Positions 24,548 to 60,321 of a stretch of DNA of 64,000 nt are shown here, piece by piece. The notes under the pieces were generated by a model. That model was not told the origin of the DNA and ran no database searches. It saw nothing but the letters and a program-made list of their open reading frames with translations. A program made the position numbers and the translations under genes. The number at the start of each line of letters is the position of its first letter. The stretch's first letter is position 1. This DNA is from Lachnospiraceae bacterium (GTDB lineage: Bacteria; Bacillota; Clostridia; Lachnospirales; Lachnospiraceae): assembly GCA_024693545.1 (NCBI GenBank), contig JAILKT010000060.1:32723-96722 (forward strand), read 5' to 3'.

Positions 24548-25450
24548 TTATTCCACCGTACAGAAGCTTGCGGAAACATACGCCTTCGGCGCATCATTAT
24601 ATACGATCGCAACCCATCCATATACTTCAGGTGCAGTCGGGTCGAGTGAGTAAACCGCTCCCTCGGCAGCTATGGCAAGCTTATTTGATTCCATATTGGC
24701 GTCATCACGTATATAAACAGCCCTGTCTATCCTGACTTTTCTCGAACTTACTCCCTGAATCTGTTCATCCGCAGCTCTTCCTGTAAGGAGGTAGTTGTTT
24801 ATAACGTATCCCGTAAGATCTCCACACTTTACAAGAGAGAATTCTTCCCCCTTTTCAAGGACTATACCGTACGAGCCCTTGAGGAACTCCCCGACTTTTT
24901 CTGAGGATTTGCTTGCCTCCTTGCGGACATTGACCTGATAGTTTATGTTTTGAAGTACAAAATGCGTCTCTGTTCCGTCAAATTTAAGTTCTTCCACAGG
25001 AACATTTTTCCCTATCGGCAATCCTTCTGCCGTAACCTCGCCGTTATTGCCTGATCCTTCGTTTCCGGATGATGCGTTATTGTCCCCGTTTGTTTTCTTA
25101 TCGTCTTCCTGTTTGGTCTTGCCGTTCTCTCCTTCAGTGTTACTCTTCGACCCGGTGTTTTCCGATGCGGCATCTGAGGACTTGTTTTCCGGATTCACTT
25201 GCTCCGAATTGTTTTTCTTTGAATCCGAAGGATCGGTTTCACTGCTTTCTTCTCTTTTGATCGCTTCGTCTTCACCCAAAGGCGACAGTTTTTCGTTGCT
25301 GTTATTAACCGTCTGCTTTGTTTCGACATTTTCGGTTTTGTCGTTTCCTCCAAACTCGTTTACCAGGGAGATAACTCCGAATATGAGTGCCAATATTGCC
25401 GTGATAACAAATACTCCGGTTATAATCTTAAAAATCTTGTTAGGATTCAT
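24548..25450 (-). CDS. membrane-anchored protein with two bacterial SH3-like domains
   Basis: N-terminal TM helix, a Ser/Asn/Glu-rich linker, then two SH3b-like blocks (VNVRKEASKSSEKVGEFLKGSYGIVLEK..., VYIRDDANMESNKLAIAAEGAVYSL...). Confidence 0.65.
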   Translation of the reverse strand: MNPNKIFKIITGVFVITAILALIFGVISLVNEFGGNDKTENVETKQTVNNSNEKLSPLGEDEAIKREESSETDPSDSKKNNSEQVNPENKSSDAASENTGSKSNTEGENGKTKQEDDKKTNGDNNASSGNEGSGNNGEVTAEGLPIGKNVPVEELKFDGTETHFVLQNINYQVNVRKEASKSSEKVGEFLKGSYGIVLEKGEEFSLVKCGDLTGYVINNYLLTGRAADEQIQGVSSRKVRIDRAVYIRDDANMESNKLAIAAEGAVYSLDPTAPEVYGWVAIVYNDAPKAYVSASFCTVE

Positions 25451-25525
25451 AATCTTAACACCCCCTGCAAATTATTGTACTGCGTTTACTTTTTCTCTTG
25501 TATACACCTGCTTTTATTTCGGCAT

Positions 25526-26383
25526 TTACTCTTTCTCATCCAAAGCTTTTGTTCCGGGGAGCTGTATATATATGCCCATTCCCGCTCCCGGAGCACTCCT
25601 TGCGTAAATCGTTCCGCCATAGGCGTTAACAATATCTCTTGCCTGTGTAAGTCCCAGGCCGTTTCCGCTGACTCTGTTCGAACCCTGGAAATTAAGGTCG
25701 AAAATGTACGGAAGTTCGTCTTTTCCTATTCCGAGTCCGTCATCCTTACAGACAATAAAAATATCATCGGCAACATTTGACACCGTAATATGCATATTTC
25801 CGGGGCGACGCATATATTTTACCGCATTATCGACAATATTTTTCATCATTACGGTCAAAAGTTTCCTGCTTCCCGTATATTCAACATTTCCGGCACAAAC
25901 GCATCCGGTTCTGATGCCCGCCTCCATTGCAAAAGGCTCCATAACGGCGATCGTATGCTTGACGATTTCGCCCATATCCACGCTCTCCTTTTCCTCAAGA
26001 AGAGCTTCATCAAACAGTACGGTTTTAAGTTTTGTGACTTCACGAACGACCGGCTCCTCTTTTTTTGATACATCGGCTACCGTTTCGGTTTTCTCATCGG
26101 TTCCGACCGCTGCGAGAGCAGGTGCGCTTATGACTGTCATGTTATCGGATTCGTTTGCCCCGGCATCACTGCCTTCAGGCTGCTTTCCGTCCTTTTCACG
26201 GTCGGACATAAAAGCCTTGTCCGAAAGAAGTGCCACTATCACAAGAAAAACAACGGTTTCAAGCGCAAAAAGCAGTGTTGTGACATAATTGGGGAAATTG
26301 TATAATCCGTATAATGCCACCACAAAAACAATCAATGCGACGATCAGCATCAATATTTCTTTGATTCCGTTTTTCTTAGCCAT
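25526..26383 (-). CDS. membrane protein carrying only a histidine-kinase catalytic (HATPase_c) domain; no DHp/H-box
   Basis: Two N-terminal TM helices and an acidic linker, then N box NIVDNAVKY, G1 DDGLGI and G2 GNGLGL. No HE..TP-type phospho-acceptor segment is present. Confidence 0.7.
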   Translation of the reverse strand: MAKKNGIKEILMLIVALIVFVVALYGLYNFPNYVTTLLFALETVVFLVIVALLSDKAFMSDREKDGKQPEGSDAGANESDNMTVISAPALAAVGTDEKTETVADVSKKEEPVVREVTKLKTVLFDEALLEEKESVDMGEIVKHTIAVMEPFAMEAGIRTGCVCAGNVEYTGSRKLLTVMMKNIVDNAVKYMRRPGNMHITVSNVADDIFIVCKDDGLGIGKDELPYIFDLNFQGSNRVSGNGLGLTQARDIVNAYGGTIYARSAPGAGMGIYIQLPGTKALDEKE

Positions 26384-26453: not shown

Positions 26454-28784
26454 TCACAGTCCTATCTGCGACGCATATGGTTCAAAATCTCCTTTGGTAA
26501 ATACCTTACCTACTTTGATAAACTCATATTTTATCGCAAGGAGATAATGCTTCATATGAACTTCCTTACCGTCTCCGTCGGCTGCCGCAAGGAATGCGGC
26601 ATTGAGGATACAGTTCTTTATATTACCGCCCGCAAACTCAAAACGTTCGGCAAGGAACCTGAAATCCACGTCCTCGGCAAGAGGCGTAGTCTTCGGAACC
26701 GTCGTTCTCCAAAGCATCTCACGTGTATCGACATCGGGGAACTGGAATTCTACGATGTATTTCATACGTCTGAAGAATGCGGGATCGATGTTGTGCTTGT
26801 AGTTTGTTGCAAGCACGCACACGCCGTCATATGCTTCCATTTCCTGAAGGAGGAGTGCCGTCTTGTTGTTGGCCGATGCCTGGTTTGAACCTCCGTCATC
26901 GGAACGTTTTGCAAAAATAGTATCACATTCGTCAAAGAAAAGGACAACATTACATTTTTTTGCTTCCCTGAATATCATAGAGAGCGACTTCTCTGTTTCA
27001 CCGACATACTTGTCAACTACCTTCGAAACGTCAACTCTGTAAAGCTCCAGATTAAGCTCATGCGCAAGCACCTGCGCCATCATGGATTTACCGGTACCGG
27101 GTGCACCGAAAAGAAGAACTGTAAGTCCACGTCCGTAAGGATACTTCTTGATATAATTCCAGTCATCGTAGACCGCATTCTTAAAGTTCATCTGCTCAAT
27201 GGCATGTGAAATCGTCTCGCGCTGATCCGGATTCATAACGATATCGTCAAAACCGAATTTAGCCTCAACGCGTGTTGCCTTCTTACTGAGTTCCGAAGAC
27301 ATCTGCGCATTACATCCCTTGAACAGCATCGCCCTTGAGATTGCCTTTTCTTTATTCATTGTGGCGAGACTGCGTGCATGATAAAGGGCATCCTTTATCT
27401 TCCCCGGCGTAAAGAGGAATTTTATCGTCATCTCTCCGAGATCGCAATCCTCGCCGAGTTCGTACGGCTTGGAATAATAATTCCAGCATTCCGCACGCTC
27501 AGCAGCCGAAGGCGTCGAGATCGTCAGTTCTGTAAAATCGAGCTTCGTGATGGTTTTAAGCTGAAGCGTATCCATACTGAGCGTAAATACAAGAACGCCT
27601 TTCTCCGAAAGCTTCGAAAATGCCAGATCCATATATCCCTGAAATTTTTCCTTTTCTTCTTCTCTGTATGAAAGTTCTTCAAGGACACATGCCGAATTGG
27701 TGAGTATACATTCTCTGGCCGCTGCCCAAAGAGCCTTGTCTACAAACGAGTAATCATATACAAAAAGCTTTCGGCAGTTAAGTGCTATGGCCTTCAAGCC
27801 GCGCTTCGCGCAGAAATGCTTAACAAAGAATTTCCTTCCGCTGCCCTCATCTCCGCAATACGAGAAGATCTTCACGCCCTGATCGTAGGAAATCTCCATA
27901 GCCTCCAAAACAGCGCTGTTAGCGAGAATCGGATCGAGTTCTTTCCCATCCGTCAGCATTCTCATAAATCTTATATAGTTCTCATCGATCTTGTCGGGGT
28001 TTCGGCCGAAAAGGAAATCTATGATCCTTTTATCGGGTGAAACAACAGTCGAAAACGGCATACTTGAAGCGACCCTGAGGTCAAATACGGGAAGAAGCTG
28101 TTCAAGGCATACAGACATATCCGCATATACGCCCGTGATGGAGAATTCCTTTCCGTAGAACAGCTTTGCGGCAGATTCGATAGTCGGTGCCGAAAGCGAT
28201 CCGTTTTCATTGATAACCTGGAAAACTCCCGCATAGTCTGTCTGTGTAGATGAAAGAACAGCCGCAGCAAAACAGAATACCGTAAACGGTTCAAATCCCT
28301 GCTTGTTGCAAAGCTCATAGAAAGGCATTCTGATCCCCGCATTAACAGACGCCTCCGCTCTGCTCATGATATAATCCATGATCTCGGGAAGATTATCGGT
28401 CTCGTTTTCCGATTTCTTCTTTGACTCCACTGCTTCGCTCTCCGGTGCTTTCTCGGCAAATCCTGCCAGGAGGCTCATCAGATCGTCATCCTCCGCTAAA
28501 GCAGTCTCTTTACTTTCTGATTCCGAAGACTCCGCTTCCGTCGAATCGTCCGCTTTATTTTCTCCTTTAACAGAAAAAGCCCGCATCTTGTCGCGACATA
28601 TATCATGTGCCACTTCAAGATCGGGATACAGTACATTTTTATAGCCCCCCTGACCGGTTGCAAAGGTCAGTTTCATACCGGACAGGTATGCATCAAGCCC
28701 CGTATTTACGCAAGCAAAAAGATTTTCCATAAGCTCATCATAACTTGCAAACGGTTTGCTTTTTAATTCCTGTGAACAGATCAT
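26454..28784 (-). CDS. AAA+ ATPase of the contractile-injection-system type (Afp15/Pvc15-like)
   Basis: 776 aa with a long N-terminal region and one C-terminal AAA module (LLFGAPGTGKSMMAQ, VVLFFDECD, sensor and Arg-finger region). It lies at the distal end of a phage-tail-like cluster. Confidence 0.8.
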   Translation of the reverse strand: MICSQELKSKPFASYDELMENLFACVNTGLDAYLSGMKLTFATGQGGYKNVLYPDLEVAHDICRDKMRAFSVKGENKADDSTEAESSESESKETALAEDDDLMSLLAGFAEKAPESEAVESKKKSENETDNLPEIMDYIMSRAEASVNAGIRMPFYELCNKQGFEPFTVFCFAAAVLSSTQTDYAGVFQVINENGSLSAPTIESAAKLFYGKEFSITGVYADMSVCLEQLLPVFDLRVASSMPFSTVVSPDKRIIDFLFGRNPDKIDENYIRFMRMLTDGKELDPILANSAVLEAMEISYDQGVKIFSYCGDEGSGRKFFVKHFCAKRGLKAIALNCRKLFVYDYSFVDKALWAAARECILTNSACVLEELSYREEEKEKFQGYMDLAFSKLSEKGVLVFTLSMDTLQLKTITKLDFTELTISTPSAAERAECWNYYSKPYELGEDCDLGEMTIKFLFTPGKIKDALYHARSLATMNKEKAISRAMLFKGCNAQMSSELSKKATRVEAKFGFDDIVMNPDQRETISHAIEQMNFKNAVYDDWNYIKKYPYGRGLTVLLFGAPGTGKSMMAQVLAHELNLELYRVDVSKVVDKYVGETEKSLSMIFREAKKCNVVLFFDECDTIFAKRSDDGGSNQASANNKTALLLQEMEAYDGVCVLATNYKHNIDPAFFRRMKYIVEFQFPDVDTREMLWRTTVPKTTPLAEDVDFRFLAERFEFAGGNIKNCILNAAFLAAADGDGKEVHMKHYLLAIKYEFIKVGKVFTKGDFEPYASQIGL

Positions 28785-28804: not shown

Positions 28805-29047
28805 TTACTGTTCTTTCCTCTTTTTTGTCTTAAAAACCGCGTACCTGTCAAACACACTCTCCGCGTTGTTTATGCCGTTGTTCATATCCGAGGAAAAAAC
28901 TTTACTTTTCTCGTTTATATAATGCCACTCATGTGGTTCATATTCCAATACGTCATCTTCAGGTGCATCACCTTCTCTGCGCCTTTTTTCTTTTTTATCC
29001 TTGTCGGCTTTTTGGTTTGCCCTGGCAAGTTCTTTTTCTATCCTCAT
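28805..29047 (-). CDS. small highly charged hypothetical protein
   Basis: 80 aa with a KDKKEKRRRE N-terminal part and a KTKKRKEQ C-terminus. Tightly packed between the kinase and the ATPase genes. Confidence 0.45.
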   Translation of the reverse strand: MRIEKELARANQKADKDKKEKRRREGDAPEDDVLEYEPHEWHYINEKSKVFSSDMNNGINNAESVFDRYAVFKTKKRKEQ

Positions 29048-29066: not shown

Positions 29067-29480
29067 TCAGATCTTCTTCATGATCGTGAAAACATTCTTT
29101 CCGTCAACACGCGCATAGCTCACACTGTCCATGCTGTTCTTTACCATATAGATCCCCAGTCCACCGATTTTCCTGTCCTGCGCCGGAAGGGTAACATCCG
29201 GGTCTTTCCGAAGCAGTGGATTGTATTCGATTCCCTCATCCTCAAAAACGATCGTGGCATTGCCTTTTTTATCGGTATCAACGCTTATGTCAGCGTATTT
29301 TTCGGCATTCGGTAATTCCTTATATGCGTATGAAGCAATATTTACAAAAATTTCTTCAACGGCGACGTCTATAACCGGAAGTTCGGTGTTACTCCACCCT
29401 TTTTTTGTGAGTAACCCGTTAACAAAATCGATGACCCCGGAAAGCTCGGATACCTCTGCGTCAAATCTCGCTTTTACCAT
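29067..29480 (-). CDS. anti-sigma-factor-type Ser kinase (RsbW/SpoIIAB-like, HATPase_c_2)
   Basis: N box EEIFVNIASYAY, G1-like DEGIEYNP, G2 GGLGIYMV. The start is moved to the ATG at 29480 after GGGAGGA. Confidence 0.78.
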   Translation of the reverse strand: MVKARFDAEVSELSGVIDFVNGLLTKKGWSNTELPVIDVAVEEIFVNIASYAYKELPNAEKYADISVDTDKKGNATIVFEDEGIEYNPLLRKDPDVTLPAQDRKIGGLGIYMVKNSMDSVSYARVDGKNVFTIMKKI

Positions 29481-29506
29481 ATGTCCTCCCATTCAAATCT
29501 GACATC

Positions 29507-29806
29507 TTACTCTATGGTAATAATGCTGTCAAAGCCCGAGAGTTTCAAAACCGATAAAATCGCTTCCGAAACATTGATCAGTTTCATCTCCCCGCCCTTC
29601 GACTGTGCAGTCTTCTGACCTATCAATAGAGCTCTGAGTCCCGCACTTGAAACGTATTCGCATTTTTCAAAATCAATAGTCAGGTTTTTAACCTTTTGAA
29701 AAGCCAGCAAAATACTGCTCTGCAGGCCTCCGCTTGTTGAAGCATCAACTCTCCCCTCAACAGAAATAGTAATAAGTTCTCCGTTTCTCGTTTCGCTTAA
29801 TGTCAT
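29507..29806 (-). CDS. STAS-domain anti-anti-sigma factor (SpoIIAA/RsbV-like)
   Basis: ISVEGRVD...DFEKCEYVSSAGLRALL, with the conserved phosphorylatable Ser in the VSSAGL motif. The start is moved to the ATG at 29806 after AAGAGGGG. Confidence 0.82.
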   Translation of the reverse strand: MTLSETRNGELITISVEGRVDASTSGGLQSSILLAFQKVKNLTIDFEKCEYVSSAGLRALLIGQKTAQSKGGEMKLINVSEAILSVLKLSGFDSIITIE

Positions 29807-29904
29807 ATGTACCCCTCTTAGCATTTGAAATGTAGTTTCGACTCTTCCTTTCAACAATCGAAACAGATTATGAAATATCAATCCTCATCAACTTAATCAT
29901 GTTT

Positions 29905-29941: not shown

Positions 29942-31075
29942 TTATCTTAGTACCGGTCCGTCCTCATCATCCGTCAGTACCATCCCATCCTGCAGTTTTT
30001 CTCCGGGCATAAGAACGTTGGCATCAAGTGACATATGACTGTCAAGCTTTCCTTCCTTTGTATCGAATACCGTAGCATTGATATCGAGGTAACTGTGGGT
30101 GTCGAGCCCGCTCCTGCCTTCGAGATAAATGATACGCAGATGTGTCCTTATGGGAACGAACTGATTCAAAAGGAAGAAGAGCTGTGATTTCTTTTTTTCT
30201 TCCACAAACGATCTTATAAGGATCGTAACATCAAATTTGTTTTCTCCGAACATTCGCTGATCGTATTCGTCTTTGTTCTCGATTATGATGCACTTCTCCG
30301 AAAGCACTATCTCGCAGAGTCTCTCAAGGGCGGCTTTTGTTCCTTTCTTTCTGTTAAGCATCGGCGCCTCTTTCACAAGCAGTCTCAGCTTTTCTTCCTC
30401 AAGGAAATCGCCGCTCAGGTCGATACCCATCCAACCCGCATAAGTCACAAGCAGCTCCTTATCGGCCACTTCCGTATCGAGATTGACCGCATATCCGTCG
30501 ATCCTGTCCTGAAAATCGTTAAATATCGACGAAAGAACAGAAAGATACCTATGGAAGAATCCTCCTCTCTTTCTGTAAATCTCAGGCAACGTGTTCATAA
30601 AAGTATCGCCCGGATTTATGACTTTTATATCGCTCAAAGGTCCCTCGAAGCTTCCCTCAATTCGTATGGCAACAAAAAGATATCGTCCGTTGACGTCGTA
30701 CATAAGTATGTCGTTGGCACCTCTTATCGACTTTGCCCCCGCAAGCTCAAAAAGACTAAGTTTTATCCCCGGATCTTCATTTGTTTCGCAGAGGAACTCC
30801 TTCATATCGGAAAGGACATTTTTTCTCGTAAATGCCGTTGTTTCCGTAGCAAAATAAAATATCGTCACTTCGGTGTCATCGGGAACATTGATATTAAAGG
30901 TCAGCCTTCCCCATTCTGCTTCCTGCTTACCTGCGTCAAACGGTGGAAGAAAGACATAATGCATTCTGTCCGTATCATCACAAAAAAGCCTTCCTTTATC
31001 ATCCGTCTTAAGGGCATAAAGGGCGGAGTGGCTTATTCTGCTATTTTTAACTGAATACCTGGCTAAGTATGGCAT
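29942..31075 (-). CDS. baseplate protein, phage P2 gpI-like tail protein domain
   Basis: LPEIYRKRGGFFHRYLSVLSSIFNDFQDRIDG ... LLVTYAGWMGIDL ... LNRKKGTKAALERL matches the gpI-type LP.iY / wLA.WlG / RGT pattern. Confidence 0.75.
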   Translation of the reverse strand: MPYLARYSVKNSRISHSALYALKTDDKGRLFCDDTDRMHYVFLPPFDAGKQEAEWGRLTFNINVPDDTEVTIFYFATETTAFTRKNVLSDMKEFLCETNEDPGIKLSLFELAGAKSIRGANDILMYDVNGRYLFVAIRIEGSFEGPLSDIKVINPGDTFMNTLPEIYRKRGGFFHRYLSVLSSIFNDFQDRIDGYAVNLDTEVADKELLVTYAGWMGIDLSGDFLEEEKLRLLVKEAPMLNRKKGTKAALERLCEIVLSEKCIIIENKDEYDQRMFGENKFDVTILIRSFVEEKKKSQLFFLLNQFVPIRTHLRIIYLEGRSGLDTHSYLDINATVFDTKEGKLDSHMSLDANVLMPGEKLQDGMVLTDDEDGPVLR

Positions 31076-31090: not shown

Positions 31091-31191
31091 CTTTCAGAAC
31101 ATGTTAAGTTCGATCGATATTTTCCCGGCTCGTCAAAGTTACTTTCAGAACATATTAAGTTCGATCGATATTCTTCCGGCACAGCAAAGTG
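31091..31191. repeat. 51-nt tandem duplication spanning the stop codon of the 695-aa baseplate gene
   Basis: 31091-31140 versus 31142-31191 match at 43 of 50 positions. The downstream copy (31091-31140) is a ghost of the last 12 codons (RAGKISIELNMF-stop) preceded by an in-frame TGA. Confidence 0.85.
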
Positions 31192-44302: not shown

Positions 44303-44316
44303 CTTGAAGCTCCTTC

Positions 44317-44478
44317 TCACTTAAAATCAACGATACTCTTTTCTTTGCTCTTGCTCTCTGAGGGATTCAGACTTTTGTTGATCGCCGATATCTCATTGCA
44401 CCATCTGCGCCGACTTTTATGATCGAGCGCCATCACCTCATCATTACTCCAGTGAAAATAATACGAGATAAAGGACAT
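44317..44478 (-). CDS. unannotated 53-codon ORF in the -1 frame of the chaperone gene (probable E-prime frameshift extension, or a separate small protein)
   Basis: Translation is MSFISYYFHWSNDEVMALDHKSRRRWCNEISAINKSLNPSESKSKEKSIVDFK. The frame stays open upstream across the chaperone stop codon. Only a poorly spaced SD-like AGGGA lies 2 nt before the ATG. Confidence 0.6.
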   Translation of the reverse strand: MSFISYYFHWSNDEVMALDHKSRRRWCNEISAINKSLNPSESKSKEKSIVDFK

Positions 44479-47223: not shown

Positions 47224-47240
47224 CTTTTTATGTTCTCCTT

Positions 47241-47627: not shown

Positions 47628-47628
47628 A

Positions 47629-51688: not shown

Positions 51689-53817
51689 TGCGTGTCACCT
51701 CCCTCCTCAACAGTCTTAACCGTCATAGTATCAGGATCGGGCCTGCCGCTTATCACTTCGTTGCCGTCCTTATCGAGAACAACAACCGAAAGGTTGCCGA
51801 TCGATCCCTGTAAAAGGGACAGATACGTCATTTCTTTATCGTTTTCCGTTTCACTTCCGCCCAGGATCGAACCTTCCGAGGTCACAAGTTTATAGCTTGC
51901 GGCCCCTTCTACCGATTCATCGGCCGTAAACTTAAACTCTACCGTTCCGCTCGTTTCGTTTTCCTTTAACGTATATGTTCCGATAGTTTTTACCGTATCC
52001 TCTTTCTTCTTCACCACATATCCGGTGATAATGTCCACAGGTCCGCTGTAAAGTGAAGGATTTATGGTTTGATCGCATATCATCACGTCACTGTCGTCAA
52101 AGAATCTCAGGAATACAGATTCACTGCCGTCAAGAATCAGACCGAGATGAACTATCGTATCATCGATTTCGGCCGAACCTATCTTTGTATTATCAACCCA
52201 TAATTCAAATCTTGAGATACTGACCTCAAAATCCTCGGGAATATGAAGGCCCAGTTCAAATACGTTTGCCTCCGGTCGTACCATTATATAATACGTAACA
52301 CCGGAAACGGTTTCAGCGACCAGATAACTGTCTCCGCCCACTGTATCGACCGCATTTATGCCGTCTCCCATGAGCAGCGCCGTGATCGCACCGCATGTGG
52401 TTCTGTCAAGTGACACAAGCGCCTGTGTATAAGCATCAAGATCATTCGAAACGTTAAGCTGCGTGCTGTCAAAATCCTCCTGCAGCGCCGTGTACTCTTC
52501 AAATGTAAGTTCTCCCATCTGATTCCTGATAAGCGCCTGTTCGAGCTCGCGTCCCTTTTTCTCTATCTCTTTACTTCCGCTGCGATATGTCTTTTCAAGG
52601 GCCTTTACATTTTCAAATGCATCCTTGACCTGTGATCTTATGTCTTCCTCTACACCCTCCTGGTCAAGCCTTGCTCCCTGATAATCAAGTATCGCATTGT
52701 AGAGCGCATACGGCTCATCTTCAATATACCTTGAACCGGCCGTCGCTCCCTTAAACCAAAGTTTCGGTATCTTTATGAAAAGGATCTTGATCTTTCCTTC
52801 CCATTTTTCATCGATTTTTTTGATCAGCTTGTCAAATGCGAGCTTAAGCGCAAGTCCGTCGACCTCTTCACCGTTTCTGGCCGTACTTACAAACGACTCT
52901 ACAAGCGACATATGATCACCGTACTTTGTTTTCATCTGATTGTAATATTGATCGAGGGTAAGCCTCGCCAGCGATGTGTTTGATCTTGACTCAAACATAC
53001 TCTGCGAGTTTGCAAGCGTGTACTCAGTTATATCCGATAGGTTTGCTCTTTCAATGATCGCATTCATATACGGATTAACAAAAACGAATCCCGACCTGAC
53101 ATCCACACCGATCATCTTCTTAAGCTTTTCCTTAGTATTCATAAAAGTTGTCTCATCGGTGCTTATGCTATCTTCCAGCTTACTTATCGAATTCTTTATC
53201 GCATCGACATCGGTCTGACTTGCGAGTCCGAGTAACAGTCTGCCTTCGTTTTTTGTAAGTGTCTTTTTCTTTGTCTCGAGCAGATTTTTGTTAAATGATA
53301 TTTTTTCCTGTAATGTATATACCTTCACATAAAGATTGGTCGCGCTTTCGTATATGGAATATATGTCATCGTTCAGTTTGTGCTGCAGATTCGTAATCTC
53401 GGCCTGGATGGAGATCGGTTTGAAGTTAAAATCAAACTCCTCGGTAAATCCCGGATCCGTGGGGAAATTAAAGCTCAAAAGGGGTGTCCACGAAAATGTG
53501 GAGAGTTTCTTCTTTTTCGCAGCAATCCTCGCGATCGCATCTGAATAATTTGCCATTTTTGTGATAATTTTAACCTTGGTTGTCTTATATTGAGCCGACT
53601 TCGAAAGTGCAAGTTTTTTTACTTCGCTCAGATAAATGGTTTTGGGCTTTTTGTTCAGCCCTCCCACTATGTTTTTTATGTTGCTCAATATATCGCCCGA
53701 TGAACTGAAACCGTTTGCAGCGCCTAAAGCCGTGGAAGGACTTCCGATCAGATCGACGAAACATACAACGGCGATCAGACATACGCTGACCACAATCCGC
53801 AAAAATCTATGCTTCAT
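51685..53817 (-). CDS. secreted TolC/outer-membrane-efflux-protein-like two-repeat helical protein with an extra beta-rich C-terminal domain of about 250 aa
   Basis: Signal peptide MKHRFLRIVVSVCLIAVVCFVDLIGSPSTALGA. There are two OEP-like repeat starts (YLSEVKKLALSKSAQYKTTKVKI; LSDITEYTLANSQSMFESRSN). The start is moved to the ATG at 53817 after GGAAGGAGGA. Confidence 0.5.
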   Translation of the reverse strand: MKHRFLRIVVSVCLIAVVCFVDLIGSPSTALGAANGFSSSGDILSNIKNIVGGLNKKPKTIYLSEVKKLALSKSAQYKTTKVKIITKMANYSDAIARIAAKKKKLSTFSWTPLLSFNFPTDPGFTEEFDFNFKPISIQAEITNLQHKLNDDIYSIYESATNLYVKVYTLQEKISFNKNLLETKKKTLTKNEGRLLLGLASQTDVDAIKNSISKLEDSISTDETTFMNTKEKLKKMIGVDVRSGFVFVNPYMNAIIERANLSDITEYTLANSQSMFESRSNTSLARLTLDQYYNQMKTKYGDHMSLVESFVSTARNGEEVDGLALKLAFDKLIKKIDEKWEGKIKILFIKIPKLWFKGATAGSRYIEDEPYALYNAILDYQGARLDQEGVEEDIRSQVKDAFENVKALEKTYRSGSKEIEKKGRELEQALIRNQMGELTFEEYTALQEDFDSTQLNVSNDLDAYTQALVSLDRTTCGAITALLMGDGINAVDTVGGDSYLVAETVSGVTYYIMVRPEANVFELGLHIPEDFEVSISRFELWVDNTKIGSAEIDDTIVHLGLILDGSESVFLRFFDDSDVMICDQTINPSLYSGPVDIITGYVVKKKEDTVKTIGTYTLKENETSGTVEFKFTADESVEGAASYKLVTSEGSILGGSETENDKEMTYLSLLQGSIGNLSVVVLDKDGNEVISGRPDPDTMTVKTVEEGGDTQ

Positions 53818-53978
53818 GTCATCCTCCTTCCTTCGTCTGCCTGCAGGCGAGCCAAACTGTTTTCTTAACAATTATACGAGCATCGTCCCGGCAATCCTCG
53901 CAAAACGTCAAAAATACGGCCGTTAAATTCGTTAGCGGCATTTCGGCGCGTTTGCACGGGTCAAAGCACCTTTCGGCG

Positions 53979-55193
53979 TCATTCCTTTGTTATCTGATAC
54001 ATTTCAAATCCACCCAGTTTTTCCTTACAGAAGAACGAGTACATAAGTCCCTCATAGCGATAGGTGTACATGTATAAGGTGTAATCCCTGTCATATGTCT
54101 CTACGTCGTAGGCATCATCAAAGAGCTGCGAGGTTGTCATTTCAACTCTTCCGTTATAGGCGTTGCCTTTATCATTAAGTTCATTGACGCCCACAGCCTC
54201 TGCAAGCATTAATCTCGTGTTACCTTCGTAATACGGCTCACCGAGTGCGCTTGTCAGTCCGTTTATCGTTGTTATCTCCATTCCGTCCGCATAGAACTTG
54301 TTTTCAAAAACAAAGACGCTTCTGATGTTGATCGAATCATCAACTGTATCACTGCTTAGGTTGCCCTCATACATCGCATTTATATCGGGCATCGTTACGA
54401 TAAAATCATTCGCTCCCCGGAAAATGCGGGTTCTTCCCGTGTAAAGTTCCCTCGCTTCCTGTGTCGATCTGCCGAGGAAATCCGAATAGACTATTCTGTC
54501 TCTCGAAAACAGGCCGCTGTAGATCTGTTTTCCTGACGGATCAAAGAGTACTCCTTCTCCTTCCTTAAGGCCGCGTGCAAATCCCCCGACATATTCACGG
54601 CTGCCGCTCGCCCTCATCAGTGAACCTGCTCCTTCATAAATATTGTCCATAAAAGAGCCTTCATATTTCATCTGACCGTTCTTATAATACGACTTACCCT
54701 CGCCGTTATATTTGTTATTTGAAAACTCTCCGGAATAAACAAGGTTACCTTCTTTATCGTAAAGAAGTCCTTCACCCTTGCATACTCCCTCTTCGACAGT
54801 TCCGACATATGCCACATAACCTGAATCTGCCTTGATCTTTACTTTATCGGATACAAATCTGAGTGCGAGCGAATCATAGCTGTATATCGGAAGTCCGTCG
54901 GCTTCGTCCGAAGCCTGAAAAACCGGATTTACGACAAGCAGATAAAATACACTTAAAACCCCCAGTACGATCAACACCGCATATACAAGCTTCCTGCTGA
55001 CAAGCCAGGCCAGGAAACCGTAATAGTCTTTACTGTGTCTGGGCTTAACAGAGAGTGTCTCGGTAAAGAATCCGCGAATCGCAGTAATCAGCTTTGAAAG
55101 GATATACTGCTTCGTCGTCCATCTCTTTACAGCGGTCCAGATCTTGACGAATTTAGCTTTTATAGTACTGAGCAAAGTTGACAGCAGTTGCAT
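53979..55193 (-). CDS. membrane-anchored MORN-repeat protein
   Basis: TM helix LVYAVLIVLGVLSVFYLLVV followed by about 5 MORN-type repeats (Y.G....G...G.G). Confidence 0.75.
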   Translation of the reverse strand: MQLLSTLLSTIKAKFVKIWTAVKRWTTKQYILSKLITAIRGFFTETLSVKPRHSKDYYGFLAWLVSRKLVYAVLIVLGVLSVFYLLVVNPVFQASDEADGLPIYSYDSLALRFVSDKVKIKADSGYVAYVGTVEEGVCKGEGLLYDKEGNLVYSGEFSNNKYNGEGKSYYKNGQMKYEGSFMDNIYEGAGSLMRASGSREYVGGFARGLKEGEGVLFDPSGKQIYSGLFSRDRIVYSDFLGRSTQEARELYTGRTRIFRGANDFIVTMPDINAMYEGNLSSDTVDDSINIRSVFVFENKFYADGMEITTINGLTSALGEPYYEGNTRLMLAEAVGVNELNDKGNAYNGRVEMTTSQLFDDAYDVETYDRDYTLYMYTYRYEGLMYSFFCKEKLGGFEMYQITKE

Positions 55194-55213: not shown

Positions 55214-57583
55214 TTATTCCGAAAGAAGACCGTATCCAAACTTTTCAACGGTTCCAACGTCAAGCATTTTTTCACACTTGAACAGATACCACCTTGCAAC
55301 GAGATCTTCGGGACATTCCTTAACCGCCTCGGCAAAAAGGTTTCTCGCAAGATAAAAATCTTTAGCGTAATAAAGATCAAGCGCTTTTTTGAAAATCATT
55401 ACAGTTTCCGTTTTTCTGTTTCTTTCTTCTACAGGTACTGCATCGAGGATTTCATACAGACGAACGGTTCCCGAATTATCGGGGAGTTCGAGATATCCCA
55501 AATATCTGCTTGTATAGCTTCCTTCGTCCGCATTCAGCGCTTCTTCCGATGCAACGACACGAAGGCCGAGTTCTGAAAGTTTCGGAACAAAAACCGATAT
55601 AAGATCGAGCTGAAGAGAATTAATACATGCGTAATTCTGATCTTCCGAACCTGTGATACCGTATTCATATTCAGTCTTATGAAGGAATATCAGCGATCTT
55701 CTTCCCTGTGAAAGTTCCGATTTTCGTATTGCTTCACTCGTTTTGACAGCAAAAGAGAGCGTACCGTTCGCCCCGTCGGCAAATATCACCCTTGATGAGC
55801 ACATTGTCGAGCTGTCACTGACAAGAATTCCCTCATGCTCATTTTTATACTTGCAGATGATCTCTATGTAACGGCTCATTATGTCCGTATATTCATTTTT
55901 GTTTCTTATGAAAGGTCTGGCTATTCTGATCAGCGCAACAGTTCCGTTGACGGATCCCTTGTCGCCGAGCCTGACATCCGTAAGCGAATCCTTACCGAAA
56001 AGCTTTTCTATATTATGCGGTGCAAATCTTCCCACCATGGCAAGGGTCTGATTTCTGAGATAGTTTTTCTTGCCCATTCCCTTTGAAAGCTCCGCTGCCG
56101 CATTCCACATACCGTCAAAATCCATGGACGCAATCTTCGGCTTAACCACCTCTGTCTGCTCTCCGCTTATAACACGTCTGAGTGTTTTTGTGATTATTTT
56201 GAGCTCGAAGGCACGTCCGAAATTGATAAAAATGATCAAGGCAAGGGCTATGCCCCACACTATGACCATATGAAGAATGAACATAGATATATCAAAGACA
56301 CTGTCAGACATTATGTCCTCATAGCGTACCAATGCCGAAATAAACACCCTTGAACCCGCCTCGTCCGTAACAGGTGCTGTTACCATAAGATACTTCTTTC
56401 CCTTGATGACGGTTTCGCCCCACACCGGTCCGTTTGATGAATGAGCTCCCAATATACATTTATCGGCAGCATCGCCCCATTTATCTGAAAGCCACTCTCC
56501 GTAAGGGAAGTTCATTGAGACGTTCACATACGCACGGCTGTTGTTTATCGACAAAATGCAGATATCTTCTATACTTTCGGTAGTTTCCCACCAGCACTCT
56601 CTGACCGTCTTATAGGCGTTGTCATAACGTTCTGTTCCTATAGAGCCGTCATAATCGTTAAAACTCTGTCCATAAATATCGAGCACATTTTCAGTCTGTT
56701 TTACTCTTTCTTCAACTCTCGATTCGTTAACGGGTTCCGTCACCAGATAGATCGACGCGGCAAGACATGCCGTTAATGCGATCATAAAACCATATACTTT
56801 AAGCCACAGGTAGTTTCTTTTGAATACAACACTTCGGAAAAAGAATGCGATAATAAAGATGACTGCCACCATAATAAGAACATTACGGGCAACTGTAGGG
56901 AATCCCATTGTAACGCCTACCAATCCGGCGTTCTCGGGGACTTCGGTTTTTTCAACGATCGAATTCTCATATCCGGGGGTTCTTGAGCCGTCCGACATCA
57001 GAGTTTCGAGCTTACCGTTTATGAAGTTGGCATCAAGGAACCTTACTTCACCCTCTGCATCTTCTCTGAGCAGATTTACAGGTTCATTGTCCCGGCCTGA
57101 CATCATATAAACAGCGGCAGTCGTTCCCTGATCCTCAACGGTGACAATAGCGAGATCTCCGTTATTCACTCCAAAATCCGTAACAACAGCATCTCCCTTA
57201 AAGGATATCGTATTTTCGGTACGTTCGGTCAGTTCCTCATTCCATGCGCATATTCTTACACCCAACGGTATTCTGACCGCCATATAGACTTTATTGGAAA
57301 CACAGGCCAGACCGACAACTCTTCCTCCGTTCAGCATACTGCCGTTGCTGTCGGTTGCCGACGCGATCAGTTTTTTAGCATCATTCAGCTTGTAGATACC
57401 CGAATTTGACCGCGATTCAAAATATACATAGTTGTTTCCCGAACTGTCGGTTGTCCCATACATGACGTTTTCTTCCGCCGGAGCATAAACGCGGCACTGA
57501 TCAAAGGTAACAACGATAGTCGTTACCAAAGTCACCGCTATTAATACTATCATACAGATAACGCCAAAAATCCTGGATTTCAA
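55214..57583 (-). CDS. four-TM sensor protein with two extracytoplasmic domains and a degenerate class III nucleotidyl-cyclase homology domain plus a TPR-like tail
   Basis: TTG start after AGGAGGAGG. The CHD-like segment is GTVALIRIARPF...GILVSDSS...FLHKTEYEYGITGSEDQNYACINSLQLDLISVF...LRVVASEEA...YLGYLELPDNSGTVRLYEIL. The first metal-binding Asp position reads Arg. Confidence 0.55.
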   Translation of the reverse strand: MKSRIFGVICMIVLIAVTLVTTIVVTFDQCRVYAPAEENVMYGTTDSSGNNYVYFESRSNSGIYKLNDAKKLIASATDSNGSMLNGGRVVGLACVSNKVYMAVRIPLGVRICAWNEELTERTENTISFKGDAVVTDFGVNNGDLAIVTVEDQGTTAAVYMMSGRDNEPVNLLREDAEGEVRFLDANFINGKLETLMSDGSRTPGYENSIVEKTEVPENAGLVGVTMGFPTVARNVLIMVAVIFIIAFFFRSVVFKRNYLWLKVYGFMIALTACLAASIYLVTEPVNESRVEERVKQTENVLDIYGQSFNDYDGSIGTERYDNAYKTVRECWWETTESIEDICILSINNSRAYVNVSMNFPYGEWLSDKWGDAADKCILGAHSSNGPVWGETVIKGKKYLMVTAPVTDEAGSRVFISALVRYEDIMSDSVFDISMFILHMVIVWGIALALIIFINFGRAFELKIITKTLRRVISGEQTEVVKPKIASMDFDGMWNAAAELSKGMGKKNYLRNQTLAMVGRFAPHNIEKLFGKDSLTDVRLGDKGSVNGTVALIRIARPFIRNKNEYTDIMSRYIEIICKYKNEHEGILVSDSSTMCSSRVIFADGANGTLSFAVKTSEAIRKSELSQGRRSLIFLHKTEYEYGITGSEDQNYACINSLQLDLISVFVPKLSELGLRVVASEEALNADEGSYTSRYLGYLELPDNSGTVRLYEILDAVPVEERNRKTETVMIFKKALDLYYAKDFYLARNLFAEAVKECPEDLVARWYLFKCEKMLDVGTVEKFGYGLLSE

Positions 57584-57653: not shown

Positions 57654-58487
57654 TTATTGGAGCATCGATTCCGTTCCGATCTCTTTGAACGGATTTCTGA
57701 ACAGCCTGAAGAATGAGATATCCCCAACTATCAATTGAGTCAGTAACATCAGAAGGACTATCACGGCAAGCACGCCGCAAAGAATTAACAATATTTTAAA
57801 GAACCTCCCTATATTACGTGACAAAAAAGCCTTTGCCCTTTTAAGTATCCCCGGCTTTGCTTCCGCTTCCGTTGTTATCTTTACATCATGATAAATTTCA
57901 GAAAAATGCCTGTATACTTTTTTAGGTACCTTTCTCTTCATGAGTTCATAGCTCATGGCCTTCGATTGAGCTTTGGGCTCAATAATGTCATAAACTATCT
58001 GCGCGCATTTGTTAGCGCAATCACGTTCCCCTATTGTTGTATCATACGCAGAAAAATCAAGTCCGTAACCAAAGTTTATCGAGCAATCCTTTCCGAGATC
58101 TATCTGATCCTGATCGAGGATCAGATAAAGCAACGGGTACGGTATGTCAGCCCTCATGCATTCCATTATAAGGTTTACACAAATTTTTTCGCACTCTTCG
58201 CTGGAAAAACGTGTTCCGATGTAAAACTGTGACAACCTTCTCTCCGAATTATACGGAAAAAGTATCAAAAAGCCGTCCGGATGCGGTGCCGTTGCAAGAA
58301 ATTTCTTTCCCTCTTTTTCATAGCTTTCTATAATTTCCTTTGCAATGCCGTGATCCTTTATCGTCACCAGTGTGTAATAGGTATCCGATGAAGCATTGAT
58401 ATCCTGACAAATACCGACGTTGTCCGCATCACACCTGAACACCTCTCTTATGCAGTTAAGTGACATGTTTCCAATTTGATAGATCAT
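57654..58487 (-). CDS. hypothetical C-terminally anchored protein
   Basis: 277 aa with a single TM helix near the C-terminus (FFKILLILCGVLAVIVLLMLLTQLIV). RBS AAGGGGAG. Confidence 0.45.
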   Translation of the reverse strand: MIYQIGNMSLNCIREVFRCDADNVGICQDINASSDTYYTLVTIKDHGIAKEIIESYEKEGKKFLATAPHPDGFLILFPYNSERRLSQFYIGTRFSSEECEKICVNLIMECMRADIPYPLLYLILDQDQIDLGKDCSINFGYGLDFSAYDTTIGERDCANKCAQIVYDIIEPKAQSKAMSYELMKRKVPKKVYRHFSEIYHDVKITTEAEAKPGILKRAKAFLSRNIGRFFKILLILCGVLAVIVLLMLLTQLIVGDISFFRLFRNPFKEIGTESMLQ

Positions 58488-58521
58488 GTACTCTCCCCTT
58501 TAGAAACTACTAAATCAAGTA

Positions 58522-60321
58522 TCAGGTGTTTTCAAGGCCCTTTTTCTTAACGATAGCATACGCATATGTGCATATGGAAGGATTCTCAACACAGAATATC
58601 CTGATTTCAAATACGCCTTCCTTTGCAGGTGCCGTATATACACCCTCAGCAGTAATCTCACCGCTTCCTTCTTCGGTAAGCTCATATGCCACACTGCATT
58701 TTTCCATATTGTTAAAGTTAACGTTAAAGAAATAACTGTCTTTGGTTCCGAGGATAACGGTAGGAGTTTCAACTGTAATGCTCTTATTTGAAGCAGATTC
58801 CAGAAGTCCGAGATCATTTCCCGAGGGAAATCTTATCGCAACCCACCTGTATGTAAGTGTAAGATACTCGGGCTCACGGCCGATCTTTGCAGCTACTATA
58901 AAGCTGCCCTTGTCATTAAGGACTTTAACCGCAGTTTCAACATCGGGAATGTTCTCGGAACCGAAATTGAACAACTCGGCGTTGCCGTAAACAGTGCTCT
59001 TTGCACTCATTCCGAGTGAGCTGTCCTCAGCGAACTGCTCGTATCCTATTTCAATATATACGTTACCTTTACCGAGACCATGCATTATCTCGCCCGAGTA
59101 GCGAATATCTCCCTTTTTAACCTTATCTCCGAGCGGTATCTCAAGAGTACCCGTAGCCACCTGAATGTGTCCGGATGAAGAATTCCCGATATTTTCAGCA
59201 TGTATTTTTCTTTCAACGTTGTTTTCTCTTTTTTCGATGCGAGGTGCATCTGCAAAGAATGCCGAAAGCTTGGTTCTCTCAAAATGCTGCGACGGCGATG
59301 CAATGTATTTTTTTACAGCACTGTCGTTAATCTTATCGATGATATATGCGCTTTCGGTACGAACAAGTTCGATACATGCAAGAACCAGATAATCGGAAGA
59401 ATTAAGACCTGTACGAAGCTCAAGACTCGGCTTCGATATTTCACGCGTAATAAGAGATTCAATGTCTGTATCGACGATGCTGACCTTTATGGGCGATACA
59501 TCGGGGACAGACAATTCATGGCCGTCTGTCTTGAGAAGAGTAGAGCCGGCCTTGATCACAAGCTCGGCACTCTCAACCGGAACGTCCTGAGCCGTGATCC
59601 AATATTCTTTTTCAACAAAGCCATCTTCTTTGAGGTTGACATCTTCAATCCCGATCACGAGTTCCCTCGACTGATTATCCGTTGTAAATACGGGTATCTG
59701 AAGAACGCTTTCATACGAAAGAATGACAGGCTTTGCCGAAATTTTATCAACCCTGACAACAACCTTTACCGACTTTCCTTTAGGTATCTGAGAAGGAACC
59801 ACAAGTGTGATCCTATGATCATCATCACTGTAAAGGGTCTGTTTTGTGAGCAATTCATTCTCAAGACTGACCCTCGAAGGCACATTTGCCGCATCAATGA
59901 GGAACAGATCGTAACTTTCATTGATCCTGTTGTATTCATATTCGGAACTCTTGTTATCCTGATATCCGACCGAATAAACCGTATGAACGTTGTCTTCTCT
60001 GTATTTAAGGCAAAGAAATGCCTTGTCTCCGGAAACAGAGTCAAACCCGTCGATTGCCGAAAGCTTTTTCACTACCGAAGATGCAATAACGATCTCCCTG
60101 CCGTAATCGTCAATAGCCATGCCGCTTTCTATGAGCAATGACAAGTCGTCAAGGCTCAGAACGTTGCATCCGCAAACGATCCCGGATCCAAACATCATGT
60201 TATTGACAAACCTTCGTTTGTTGTTTACATAATTCTGCTCAGCCTGAAAATCAGCCGAAGTGAGCATCTTACCGGCATAGTAACGATTTCTCTCAAAAGG
60301 AAGCAATTGATTGTTTTTCAC
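58522..60321 (-). CDS. hypothetical 599-aa protein, first gene of the CIS-associated operon, with an Ig-like C-terminal domain
   Basis: GTG start after AGGAGAGGTG. The N-terminus is LPFERNRYYAGKMLTSADFQAEQNYVNNKRRF. The C-terminal roughly 80 aa look like a Big_2-type beta-sandwich (GEITAEGVYTAPAKEGVFEIRIFC). Confidence 0.55.
   Translation of the reverse strand: MKNNQLLPFERNRYYAGKMLTSADFQAEQNYVNNKRRFVNNMMFGSGIVCGCNVLSLDDLSLLIESGMAIDDYGREIVIASSVVKKLSAIDGFDSVSGDKAFLCLKYREDNVHTVYSVGYQDNKSSEYEYNRINESYDLFLIDAANVPSRVSLENELLTKQTLYSDDDHRITLVVPSQIPKGKSVKVVVRVDKISAKPVILSYESVLQIPVFTTDNQSRELVIGIEDVNLKEDGFVEKEYWITAQDVPVESAELVIKAGSTLLKTDGHELSVPDVSPIKVSIVDTDIESLITREISKPSLELRTGLNSSDYLVLACIELVRTESAYIIDKINDSAVKKYIASPSQHFERTKLSAFFADAPRIEKRENNVERKIHAENIGNSSSGHIQVATGTLEIPLGDKVKKGDIRYSGEIMHGLGKGNVYIEIGYEQFAEDSSLGMSAKSTVYGNAELFNFGSENIPDVETAVKVLNDKGSFIVAAKIGREPEYLTLTYRWVAIRFPSGNDLGLLESASNKSITVETPTVILGTKDSYFFNVNFNNMEKCSVAYELTEEGSGEITAEGVYTAPAKEGVFEIRIFCVENPSICTYAYAIVKKKGLENT

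Follow-up and report, generated by a model that had tools for sequence, protein, structure and literature searches.

A contractile injection system with conserved membrane and partner-switching modules in gut Lachnospiraceae, and its possible anchoring to the envelope

The 64-kb stretch of a Lachnospiraceae genome analyzed here (contig JAILKT010000060.1, positions 32,723 to 96,722; the whole stretch is called the window below, and coordinates are window positions) contains a cluster of 28 co-directional open reading frames (ORFs), all on the minus strand, numbered in transcriptional order (g01 to g28) and running from 60321 to 24548, which almost certainly encodes a contractile injection system (CIS). 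In canonical order, 16 of the 28 ORFs match contractile-tail or CIS families in Pfam, PHROGs and NCBIfam, which bears out the claim of a complete CIS made in a first-pass annotation of the bare sequence. The cluster is far beyond chance; its genes are found in an identical order in 43 further genomes. The first-pass count of about 30 co-directional genes with gaps of at most 135 nucleotides (nt) holds for the shared direction, but there are 28 ORFs, and the largest gap between maximal ORFs, that between g12 and g13, is 190 nt. The host had been correctly placed as of Clostridia type, the Lachnospiraceae belonging to the class Clostridia.

The contractile core and its classification

The core begins with the tail terminator or cap (g07, 48377..48994), equivalent to Afp16/Pvc16/Cis16, with a Pvc16_N/DUF4255 domain (PF14065, 5.1e-21) and about 71% identity over 41 loci of the family described below. 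The next gene encodes a conserved protein of 255 amino acids (aa) that is present in 40 loci and has no match in Pfam, PHROGs or NCBIfam (g08, 47629..48396); it lies between the cap gene and that of the DUF4280 PAAR-like spike tip (g09, 47241..47672; PF14107, 8.7e-27; IglG PAAR-like match, 1e-6), the Afp10/Cis10 equivalent, which probably starts at 47627, its orthologues beginning with MGVIV. The single sheath protein, Cis2 (g10, 45532..47301), matches PF04984 and PF17482 (3e-18 and 4e-18) and probably starts at 47223, given that orthologues of 563-568 aa align from query residue 25-26, just before Met-27. Then come the inner tube protein (g11, 44996..45511; gp19 PF06841, 1.4e-30; TIGR02241 above cut-off), a tail assembly chaperone-like protein (g12, 44511..44873; phrog_508, 2.5e-7) with a C-terminal CxxC...zinc-ribbon motif and 77% identity over 40 loci, and a tube-fold paralogue (g13, 42947..44320), in which a domain of about 175 aa with weak tube-fold matches (gp19, 2.8e-5; phrog_4542 tail tube, 8.4e-7) is extended by a variable C-terminal repeat region. 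The repeat that the first-pass annotation attributed to this paralogue is real (264 nt x 2.7 units, 94% matches, 43020-43735); the orthologues, mostly 259-970 aa long, keep the tube-fold domain and vary in length through the number of short E[VM]RK..M..KA.K[WY].F modules. As to g11, which directly follows the sheath gene, the NCBIfam tube adaptor model CIS5_fam scores higher (73.8 bits) than the tube model CIS1_fam (25.9 bits), both below cut-off, and the assignment of tube and adaptor in its clade may depart from that in the reference systems.

The candidate tape measure (g14, 759 aa, 40637..42916) is assigned by its position between the chaperone and tube genes and the tube-initiator genes; it has no significant match in the three family databases, and its orthologues have a median length of 847 aa and reach 1137 aa. 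Homologues of the tape measure Afp14 are generally undetectable in lineage II (Chen 2019, PMC6899500). Two paralogous tube-initiator-type proteins, Afp7/Cis7-like, follow (g15, 39724..40587, and g16, 38834..39685; PF19266 CIS_tube, 4.8e-12 and 8.7e-9; about 32% in cross-match), and after them the two halves of a split VgrG/Afp8: a gp27-like hub (g17, 37601..38821), which aligns with VgrG_rel positions 153-349 (8.5e-11), with the baseplate hub families phrog_52 and phrog_196 and, weakly, with Cis8/Alg8 in the PDB, and a gp5/gpV OB-fold spike (g18, 36740..37585; PF04717, 1.8e-18), which covers VgrG_rel positions 369-525 (1.7e-20). The baseplate continues with the gp25/TssE-like wedge Cis9 (g19, 36298..36720; PF04965, 1.5e-15), two Afp11/Cis11 paralogues and an Afp12/Cis12-type protein with a P2 gpI-like domain (g22, 29942..31075; Tail_P2_I PF09684, 2e-6; CIS12_fam, 1.3e-27; TIGR02242 above cut-off). 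The first Afp11/Cis11 paralogue (g20, 1015 aa, 33270..36317) has some 700 N-terminal aa that are unassigned and matches TIGR02243 (3.5e-19), the Streptomyces Baseplate_J protein 9gtp_1K in the PDB (1.5e-10) and, below cut-off, Pfam Baseplate_J; the second (g21, 695 aa, 31145..33232) matches PF04865 (4.1e-8; 33.3 bits against a cut-off of 21.1) and TIGR02243 (8e-24). A 51-nt direct repeat in two copies with 87% matches (31091-31190) covers the 3' end of g21 together with the spacer that separates it from g22. The Afp15/Cis15-type AAA+ ATPase (g26, 26454..28784; PF00004, 4.8e-28), with a CDC48-like D2 domain and a winged-helix N-region, shares 100% identity with MCR5431646.1, a protein of a Lachnospiraceae metagenome-assembled genome (MAG). 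PDB sequence searches with g07, g08 and g13, and with the membrane-module protein g05, gave no match. The families called in the first-pass list of core parts were matched except for the tape measure, which is a call by position only. That list had overlooked both the PAAR-like tip and the Cis13-family protein g01 that heads the cluster.

All the components that characterize the extracellular CIS (eCIS) superfamily, that is, sheath, tube, Afp11, Afp8 spike, Afp9 gp25, Afp7, Afp16 cap and Afp15 ATPase, are present, and the locus is an Afp/PVC-type CIS of lineage II. According to Chen 2019 (PMC6899500), two afp11 copies occur in subtypes IIa and IIc, afp8 is split into gp27 and gp5 ORFs in IIa, IIb and IIc, and a PAAR gene is found in IIa, IIc and IId. 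With two Afp11 proteins (g20, g21), a split Afp8 (g17, g18) and a PAAR-like protein (g09), the locus looks IIa-like in gene architecture, features that fit IIa and IIc alike; separating the two needs placement in an Afp11 tree, for which the best solved sheath, the Cis2 of the IIa system of H. borinquense, serves here as a proxy. That sheath (9EZM) is the best PDB match of g10 (6e-107), followed by Streptomyces Cis2 (8BKY, 1.9e-98; 8BL4, 8e-96), then the Pvc, Afp, tCIS and AlgoCIS sheaths (1e-50 to 1e-40; tCIS, 1.5e-45) and, far behind, the pyocin and T4 sheaths (1e-9 to 1e-13; pyocin, 1.7e-13).

Many of the genes match phage tail families, as they would if the cluster were the tail module of a defective prophage or an R-type tailocin comparable to Clostridioides diffocins. 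This possibility is very remote, and we reject it on gene content. Pfam was run on the major ORFs throughout the 64 kb, and PHROGs in addition on those that Pfam left without a match (save a 188-aa ORF at 15136-15705, for which Pfam alone was used), and none matches a capsid, portal, terminase, integrase, repressor, holin or endolysin family; nor do head, terminase or lysis families occur in the flanks of two relatives, L052 and L053, which consist of housekeeping genes. Moreover, a DUF4255 cap together with an AAA+ gene marks CIS rather than tailocins, the closest sheath of a deposited GenBank phage is only 36% identical, the pyocin sheath match is as weak as noted above against that to CIS, a scan of IMG/VR with the sheath found no relative, and the GC (guanine plus cytosine) content is even at 43-47% over the window, cluster and flanks alike, with a GC skew that is negative throughout. 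The first-pass verdict that this is not a prophage therefore holds. The same is true of its verdict on a canonical type VI secretion system (T6SS), which the gp25/TssE-like, VgrG-like and PAAR-like parts might bring to mind and which we likewise reject on gene content, its probability being next to nil: the Pfam and NCBIfam matches include no TssB/TssC, TssK, TssJLM, TssA or ClpV, and the cluster encodes a single sheath of the phage-sheath families along with tape-measure-like, chaperone and cap proteins and an Afp15-type AAA+ ATPase.

Distribution of the family and its accessory genes

A scan of the GTDB species representatives, with gene order established by tblastn and ORF-level blastp, showed that at least 43 species-level Lachnospiraceae genomes carry the cluster with the same gene order, the 43 loci coming from MAGs or isolates of human, mouse, goat, buffalo, deer and rabbit gut. 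The genes g03-g20 were found in 30-41 loci, the core proteins being 70-90% identical and the baseplate and membrane proteins about 30-45%. The sheath has thousands of relatives (counted as clusters), among which the best 120 are all at least 71% identical and those named are Lachnospiraceae or gut bacteria classified to the level of Eubacteriales (Acetatifactor, Hungatella, Eubacterium, Agathobacter); a metagenome scan with g22 found three close loci only, and an exact look-up of the window's own g26 protein matched no contig. The locus belongs to a large uncharacterized CIS family specific to gut Lachnospiraceae. A 2025 survey of human-gut MAGs found CIS almost exclusively in Bacteroidota; UMGS1691 (locus L015), which carries the cluster, comes, as its UMGS name suggests, from the MAG collection of that survey.

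The first-pass annotation considered a Firmicute system of this kind to be new. Bacillota eCIS loci have in fact been catalogued, with a few of their toxins or fibers tested (PMC8213781, PMC12923769, 10.1101/2025.07.29.667580), and a Firmicute host is thus no novelty in itself: Chen 2019 (PMC6899500) lists 213 Gram-positive eCIS loci, "mainly Actinobacteria", toxins or fibers of Ruminiclostridium and Paenibacillus eCIS are treated in Geller 2021 and PMC12923769, and IIb eCIS loci of Acutalibacteraceae are on record from rumen symbionts. The Bacillota eCIS of these catalogs (dbeCIS; Geller 2021) share superfamily and phylum with the system described here but belong to other families and other subtypes (IIb). 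What stands of the novelty claim is that, subscription-only papers excepted, the literature searched describes no Clostridia or Bacillota CIS of this type, and neither a Lachnospiraceae CIS nor its upstream membrane module nor a partner switch inside a CIS cluster.

Six genes precede the cap. The first, g01 (58522..60321), encodes a soluble protein of 599 aa without a predicted transmembrane (TM) segment, in which an N-terminus of the Cis13 family, that of a tail-fiber-like baseplate connector (NF053767 CIS13_fam, 3.3e-24, residues 8-144), is followed by beta-sandwich domains. Its AlphaFold2 (AF2) model, built with 47 homologues, is poor (pLDDT, the predicted local distance difference test, 58) and confident only for an immunoglobulin (Ig)-like sandwich at 160-290; with the model, Foldseek returned generic Ig/macroglobulin sandwiches only, and a PDB profile search with g01 returned nothing. 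The 1116 homologues of g01 are, where named, all hypothetical proteins of Lachnospiraceae or Eubacterium (one is labeled just 'bacterium'), and conservation is high in the N- and C-terminal thirds (60-79%; 60-75% in the distal third over 42 orthologues) and low in the middle (12-45%). An argument that the system has no tail fiber was dropped after g01 matched the Cis13 family. Directly after g01, in all five loci that reach it, lies g02 (57654..58487), a tail-anchored protein of 277 aa with a cytoplasmic N-domain of about 230 aa, a TM segment at 232-250 and only about 27 residues beyond it, and without a match in Pfam, PHROGs or NCBIfam. The third protein, g03 (789 aa, 55214..57583), is modeled with high confidence (AF2 pLDDT 88.8) as a four-TM receptor with extracellular beta-propeller-like and Cache/PAS-like domains, followed on the cytoplasmic side by a domain with the class III cyclase-homology fold and by a TPR-like tail; Foldseek matches it to adenylyl and guanylyl cyclases (3.5e-9 to 1e-5), with a TMt of 0.64-0.74 against isolated cyclase-homology domains. 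It has 227 representative clusters at E<1e-30, of which a distant member, P0380, lies in the same CIS context.

The remaining three proteins of this module are a bitopic protein of 404 aa with extracytoplasmic MORN repeats (g04, 53979..55193; 3.4e-11; TM 70-88; 35 loci), a protein of 728 aa with a TM or signal anchor at 24-42, TolC/OEP-like helical repeats and a beta-rich C-terminus (g05, 51685..53871; PF02321 OEP, 2e-11, above cut-off; TIGR01844 TolC, 2.2e-7, below cut-off; 35 loci) and a protein of 890 aa (g06, 49016..51688) in which a TM anchor at 9-27 and a long helical region are joined to the C-terminal domain by a (GDGT)x8 linker, encoded by a 12-nt x 8 repeat at 49686-49782; g06 is found in 33 loci, is absent from L006, L010 and L022, and has no match in Pfam, PHROGs or NCBIfam. 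Thus, TM segments occur in five of the six proteins of this module, and also in g27 and g28 at the other end of the cluster. The order g01-g06 is kept in four relatives (L051, L052, L056, L057), down to 53% identity of g01, with lengths of about 600, 280, 570-815, 405, 685 and 860-1015 aa; the 3' end of the module always adjoins the cap gene, and its upstream neighbors vary.

The tail of the cluster encodes a signaling module in which a single-domain STAS protein of the anti-sigma-antagonist type (g23, 29507..29881; PF01740, 6e-14; TIGR00377 above cut-off; likely start 29806) is paired with an RsbW/SpoIIAB-type serine kinase (g24, 29067..29492; HATPase_c_2 PF13581, 2.5e-19; RsbW models, 1.5e-8). 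The YVSSAGLRALL motif of the former, with the phospho-acceptor serine, is invariant in 10 of 10 orthologues, and the latter, which none of the 10 loci covering this region lacks, has conserved N, G1 and G2 boxes. Between the kinase and the AAA+ ATPase, always directly 5' of the ATPase gene, is a small conserved protein of 80 aa (g25, 28805..29047) with an SVFD[KR]xAVF motif and no family match, for which orthologues of 72-80 aa were found in L047-L050 and L053-L055. Last come a two-TM membrane protein (g27, 25526..26383; TM 10-28, 34-52) with a histidine-kinase-type ATPase domain (PF02518, 1.1e-19) and no recognizable HisKA domain, an equivalent of which lies within the cluster in relatives, and its partner there, g28 (24548..25450), which consists of an N-terminal TM anchor (9-27), a low-complexity linker and one or more extracytoplasmic SH3_3 domains (PF08239, 1.6e-8), with no catalytic domain in Pfam or NCBIfam. 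The genes for STAS, kinase, small protein, AAA+, HATPase and SH3 proteins are kept in all seven loci that span this part, and in two relatives, L054 and L055, a dCache-HAMP-SpoIIE phosphatase gene between those for STAS and kinase completes the partner-switching set.

The synteny survey upholds the first-pass observations of an embedded partner-switching pair and an upstream envelope module: both are conserved across the family, and the cluster is strictly associated with seven membrane proteins and the phospho-switch genes. Because of this conservation, the accessory modules at both ends are to be counted as parts of the system.

Several features of this region vary among relatives. The STAS-kinase interval is an insertion hot spot, with MatE, SBP_bac_3, SDF and Cache-SpoIIE genes. 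In L047-L050 and L055 (at ~7100-7740 in L047), a soluble 212-aa ABC-type ATPase is encoded directly 3' of the STAS gene, a pairing that recalls that of MlaB (STAS) with MlaF (ABC ATPase). In one sub-lineage (L056, 3916-7201; L057, 280-1077), the HATPase-SH3 pair is divergent and lies upstream of g01, next to a classical two-component system (Response_reg and Trans_reg_C; HisKA and HATPase_c), which suggests that transcriptional control has been added in some relatives.

Cargo is another variable. In the window and in a 91% relative, L053, the cluster stops at the SH3 gene and leads straight into the ABC-F gene, whereas the relatives at about 70% identity (L047-L050, L055) continue with a second AAA+ ATPase gene and then with genes for ADPrib_exo_Tox, Ntox11 polymorphic-toxin-domain and GNAT acetyltransferase proteins. 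In tblastn searches of the window with the cargo and phosphatase genes of relatives, none was found; the second AAA+ matched g26, as a paralogue. Because these relatives carry cargo genes that are absent from the window, the lack of a recognizable toxin, which the first-pass annotation reported, is a property of the window locus and not of the family.

Proposed anchoring and gating, and alternative modes of action

The reading that we favor, and to which we give an even chance, is that of an envelope-anchored, signal-gated CIS. The core genes would build a contractile particle of fixed length in the cytoplasm, which would not simply be released but would dock to the producer's own cytoplasmic membrane via the Cis13-family connector g01 and the tail-anchored g02, with g03-g06 and g28, the bearer of the cell-wall-type SH3 domain, forming or sensing the outward-facing, extracytoplasmic part of the Gram-positive envelope. 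Control would be post-translational, with assembly or firing gated by the partner switch (STAS protein g23, kinase g24 and, in relatives, the Cache-HAMP-SpoIIE phosphatase), with membrane sensors, namely, the cyclase-homology-fold receptor g03 and the membrane HATPase g27, as a second input. Signals from outside, for which the g03 ectodomains, the Cache domain of the relatives' phosphatase and wall contact of the SH3 or MORN proteins are candidate sensors, would be relayed by the partner switch, which would then permit the particle to assemble or fire, and contraction would drive the tube and spike outward, delivering cargo.

Anchoring is suggested because the two nearest characterized systems work inside the cell and require, or correlate with, a membrane protein encoded in the cluster. 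As reported by Zachs et al. 2024 (PMC11566945), the 9EZM system of H. borinquense belongs to clade IIa and is seen bound to the cytoplasmic membrane by cryo-electron tomography, the nearest Cis11 relatives of the archaeal system are from Bacillota, and the T6SS mode in haloarchaea goes together with a membrane protein encoded upstream, as a correlation. This system, with the closest solved sheath, resembles ours in having two cis11 genes, one cis13 gene and a conserved membrane protein upstream. It differs in its archaeal S-layer host, its plasmid-borne cluster in which no tape-measure gene was found, a single putative anchor with six TM segments versus five different membrane proteins here, and toxin-immunity pairs in an internal spacer, with no partner-switching module mentioned there.

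In the second of these systems, the cytoplasmic CIS of Streptomyces coelicolor, firing requires the bitopic membrane protein CisA (Casu 2023 PMC10066040; Casu 2025 PMC12237407). The host is likewise Gram-positive, the sheath is the second closest (8BKY), and Cis11 matches as well, likenesses that also speak for a Streptomyces-type intracellular CIS, one that is recruited to the membrane upon stress and fires into the cell's own envelope, bringing about a regulated death that benefits kin. The adaptor-like bitopic membrane protein and the stress-type RsbW/RsbV-like partner switching in the locus, and the lack of a cargo gene in the window, would fit such a role. Nevertheless, we consider it improbable. 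The Ntox11/ADP-ribosyltransferase cargo of relatives implies delivery into other cells; g02, with a folded-looking cytoplasmic N-domain and some 27 residues past the TM segment, differs from CisA, which, compared by description, has a disordered N-terminus and a periplasmic domain like that of substrate-binding proteins, unlike any of g02-g06; and the IIa-like architecture, with its split spike and two Cis11 proteins, contrasts with the S. coelicolor spike, a single chain of 643 aa in the PDB. The function of the S. coelicolor system, regulated cell death, is exercised in a multicellular actinomycete.

The anchored reading draws further on the Cis13 family itself because of its proven anchoring role in the Anabaena tCIS, where Cis13 attaches to the baseplate with its N-terminus and fixes the particle to the membrane with its distal part (Weiss 2022, PMC8894136). 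The two systems share the Cis13 N-terminal family, but Anabaena Cis13 has its own TM helix, whereas g01 has none and the tail-anchored g02 is encoded alongside it; the Anabaena host is diderm, the target is the thylakoid, and sheath similarity is much weaker (1.5e-45). The conservation of the distal third of g01 is another reason, since a tip specific for target cells is not expected to be so conserved, as are the lack of holin and endolysin families in the cluster and the TM segments of five proteins of the upstream module, g27 and g28.

The main competitor is a classical eCIS, assembled in the cytoplasm and released by lysis of a fraction of the cells, whereupon fibers formed by g01 would bind the target and cargo would be injected; the membrane and signaling genes would then serve solely to control expression or lysis, or to shield the producing cell. 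The hallmark set is there (cap, single sheath, chaperone, putative tape measure, Afp15-type AAA+), g01 is of the Cis13 family and fiber-like, with Ig-like domains, and toxin genes of relatives lie downstream of the ATPase gene, as in Afp/PVC. Indeed, core parts and their order, including the DUF4255 cap and the Afp15-type AAA+, are as in Afp, PVC and AlgoCIS. From these systems, the cluster differs in the single sheath gene, the split spike, the two Afp11 proteins and the conserved membrane and partner-switching modules, as well as in the absence of a recognizable Afp13-type fiber after Afp12 and in a sheath similarity of 1e-40 to 1e-50. In no locus that covers the region does a gene lie between those for Cis12 and STAS. 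Lysis genes were found neither in the cluster nor in the window, the module of five membrane proteins is strictly syntenic and is no feature of Afp, PVC or AlgoCIS loci, two cell-internal systems have sheaths far more similar to g10 than those of released eCIS, and in its distal domain g01 shows conservation instead of diversification. On balance, a classical eCIS seems unlikely, if still a contender of some weight.

Gating by the proposed switch is suggested because the serine motif of the STAS protein is invariant and the kinase boxes are intact, and because a SpoIIE phosphatase is present in L054/L055 and g03 is modeled as a receptor. The BtrU/V/W partner switch of Bordetella controls a type III secretion system, and the T6SS of P. 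aeruginosa is under threonine phosphorylation by PpkA/PppA/Fha1. The logic would be the same, a Ser/Thr phospho-switch that is encoded with a secretion machine and gates its activity, although the machine differs and there is no phosphatase at the window locus.

A number of points weigh against envelope anchoring and signal gating. The docked location of the particle is a prediction from gene content, and instead of an anchor the membrane proteins may provide regulation, immunity or release. The cap, chaperone, putative tape measure and Afp15-type ATPase typify released eCIS too, g01, fiber-like and with Ig-like domains, could bind target cells, and ADP-ribosylating exotoxin cargo is typical of eCIS. 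With regard to gating, family scans and tblastn of the relatives' gene detected no PP2C (SpoIIE/RsbU) phosphatase in the window, and family scans of the cluster found no sigma factor that might be the output of the partner switch; the window locus, without phosphatase and cargo genes, would hold an incomplete circuit. As for g03, it has no Pfam match, the cyclase-homology domain included, and this domain, judged by eye, seems to lack the canonical metal-binding Asp. Finally, the CIS tube is about 9 nm wide, we know of no precedent for a tube firing through a Gram-positive wall, and no peptidoglycan hydrolase was detected in the cluster.

The more specific proposal of a T6SS-like, envelope-anchored CIS in gut Lachnospiraceae, monoderm commensals that are dominant in humans, mice and ruminants, in which a Cis13-like connector and a five-protein membrane/wall complex, with the TolC-like protein and the cyclase-homology-fold receptor among its members, mediate docking and a partner-switching phospho-relay gates firing, is tentative, and we would sooner doubt it than vouch for it. 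If it is true, Bacillota would have in this system their first contractile weapon that depends on contact and is fired across a Gram-positive wall. CIS have so far been studied in Gram-negatives, cyanobacteria, Streptomyces and, recently, haloarchaea, whose T6SS-like system, the closest solved relative of the one described here, was missing from the first-pass list of characterized CIS hosts. Whether a unicellular Gram-positive cell can operate such a machine from within, and by what means, is a question for which the family offers handles on anchoring and triggering: the genes are named, one serine is invariant, and a carrier strain, the mouse isolate behind L027 (MGBC000115, Lachnospiraceae B55_55_CC_H), is in culture. 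Despite the picture of near-exclusive occurrence in Bacteroidota drawn by the survey mentioned above, the family is abundant in mammalian gut metagenomes (thousands of sheath clusters, at least 43 species-level genomes), and, with the ADP-ribosyltransferase and polymorphic-toxin cargo of relatives, the system could influence how important butyrate-producing commensals compete or interact with the host.

Boundaries, flanking genes and minor features

Housekeeping genes (GlgB, ABC-F, amylase-like, HtpG, SecDF, RecJ) flank the cluster. At the upstream boundary, a GC-rich hairpin followed by a T-run on the minus strand (~60516-60466, CCCCCCGATA...TATTGGGGGG) was read directly from the sequence, the pattern scan having overlooked it because its loop exceeds 8 nt; downstream of it, g01 has a ribosome-binding site and a GTG start at 60321. 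Between glgB and g01 lies a small Cys-rich ORF of 84 aa (60533-60787, minus strand) with two CxxCxxC-type clusters, ferredoxin-like by eye. The first-pass boundaries stand as regards the housekeeping flanks, the hairpin and the promoter-like site of the ABC-F gene, but the terminator comes after the Cys-rich ORF and not after glgB. The promoter-like site, found by a promoter scan, is at 24424-24396, upstream of the ABC-F gene; between it and the ABC-F start codon at 24280 is a hairpin with a 13-base-pair stem (24361-24391), which could be a leader or attenuator structure for that gene. Within the cluster, scans for promoters and terminators gave the same counts as shuffled sequence and are uninformative on operon substructure, and Rfam detected no riboswitch or regulatory RNA, its only hit being tRNA-Thr at 16585-16657, outside the cluster.

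Beside this tRNA gene, about 11 co-directional ORFs on the minus strand (6665-16505) surround a secretion ATPase of the T2SSE family (11172-12821); the other ORFs have no Pfam or PHROGs match, and the group may encode a type IV filament/Tad-like system or a secretion system that is as yet undescribed. Further along, an ORF on the minus strand (16680-17978) with HisKA and receiver domains and no HATPase_c match adjoins the genes for HtpG and a DUF5721 protein, an arrangement that is kept in the 91% relative L053. Inside glgB, at its 3' end, is a 36-nt repeat of 2.2 units with 90% matches (60919-60997).

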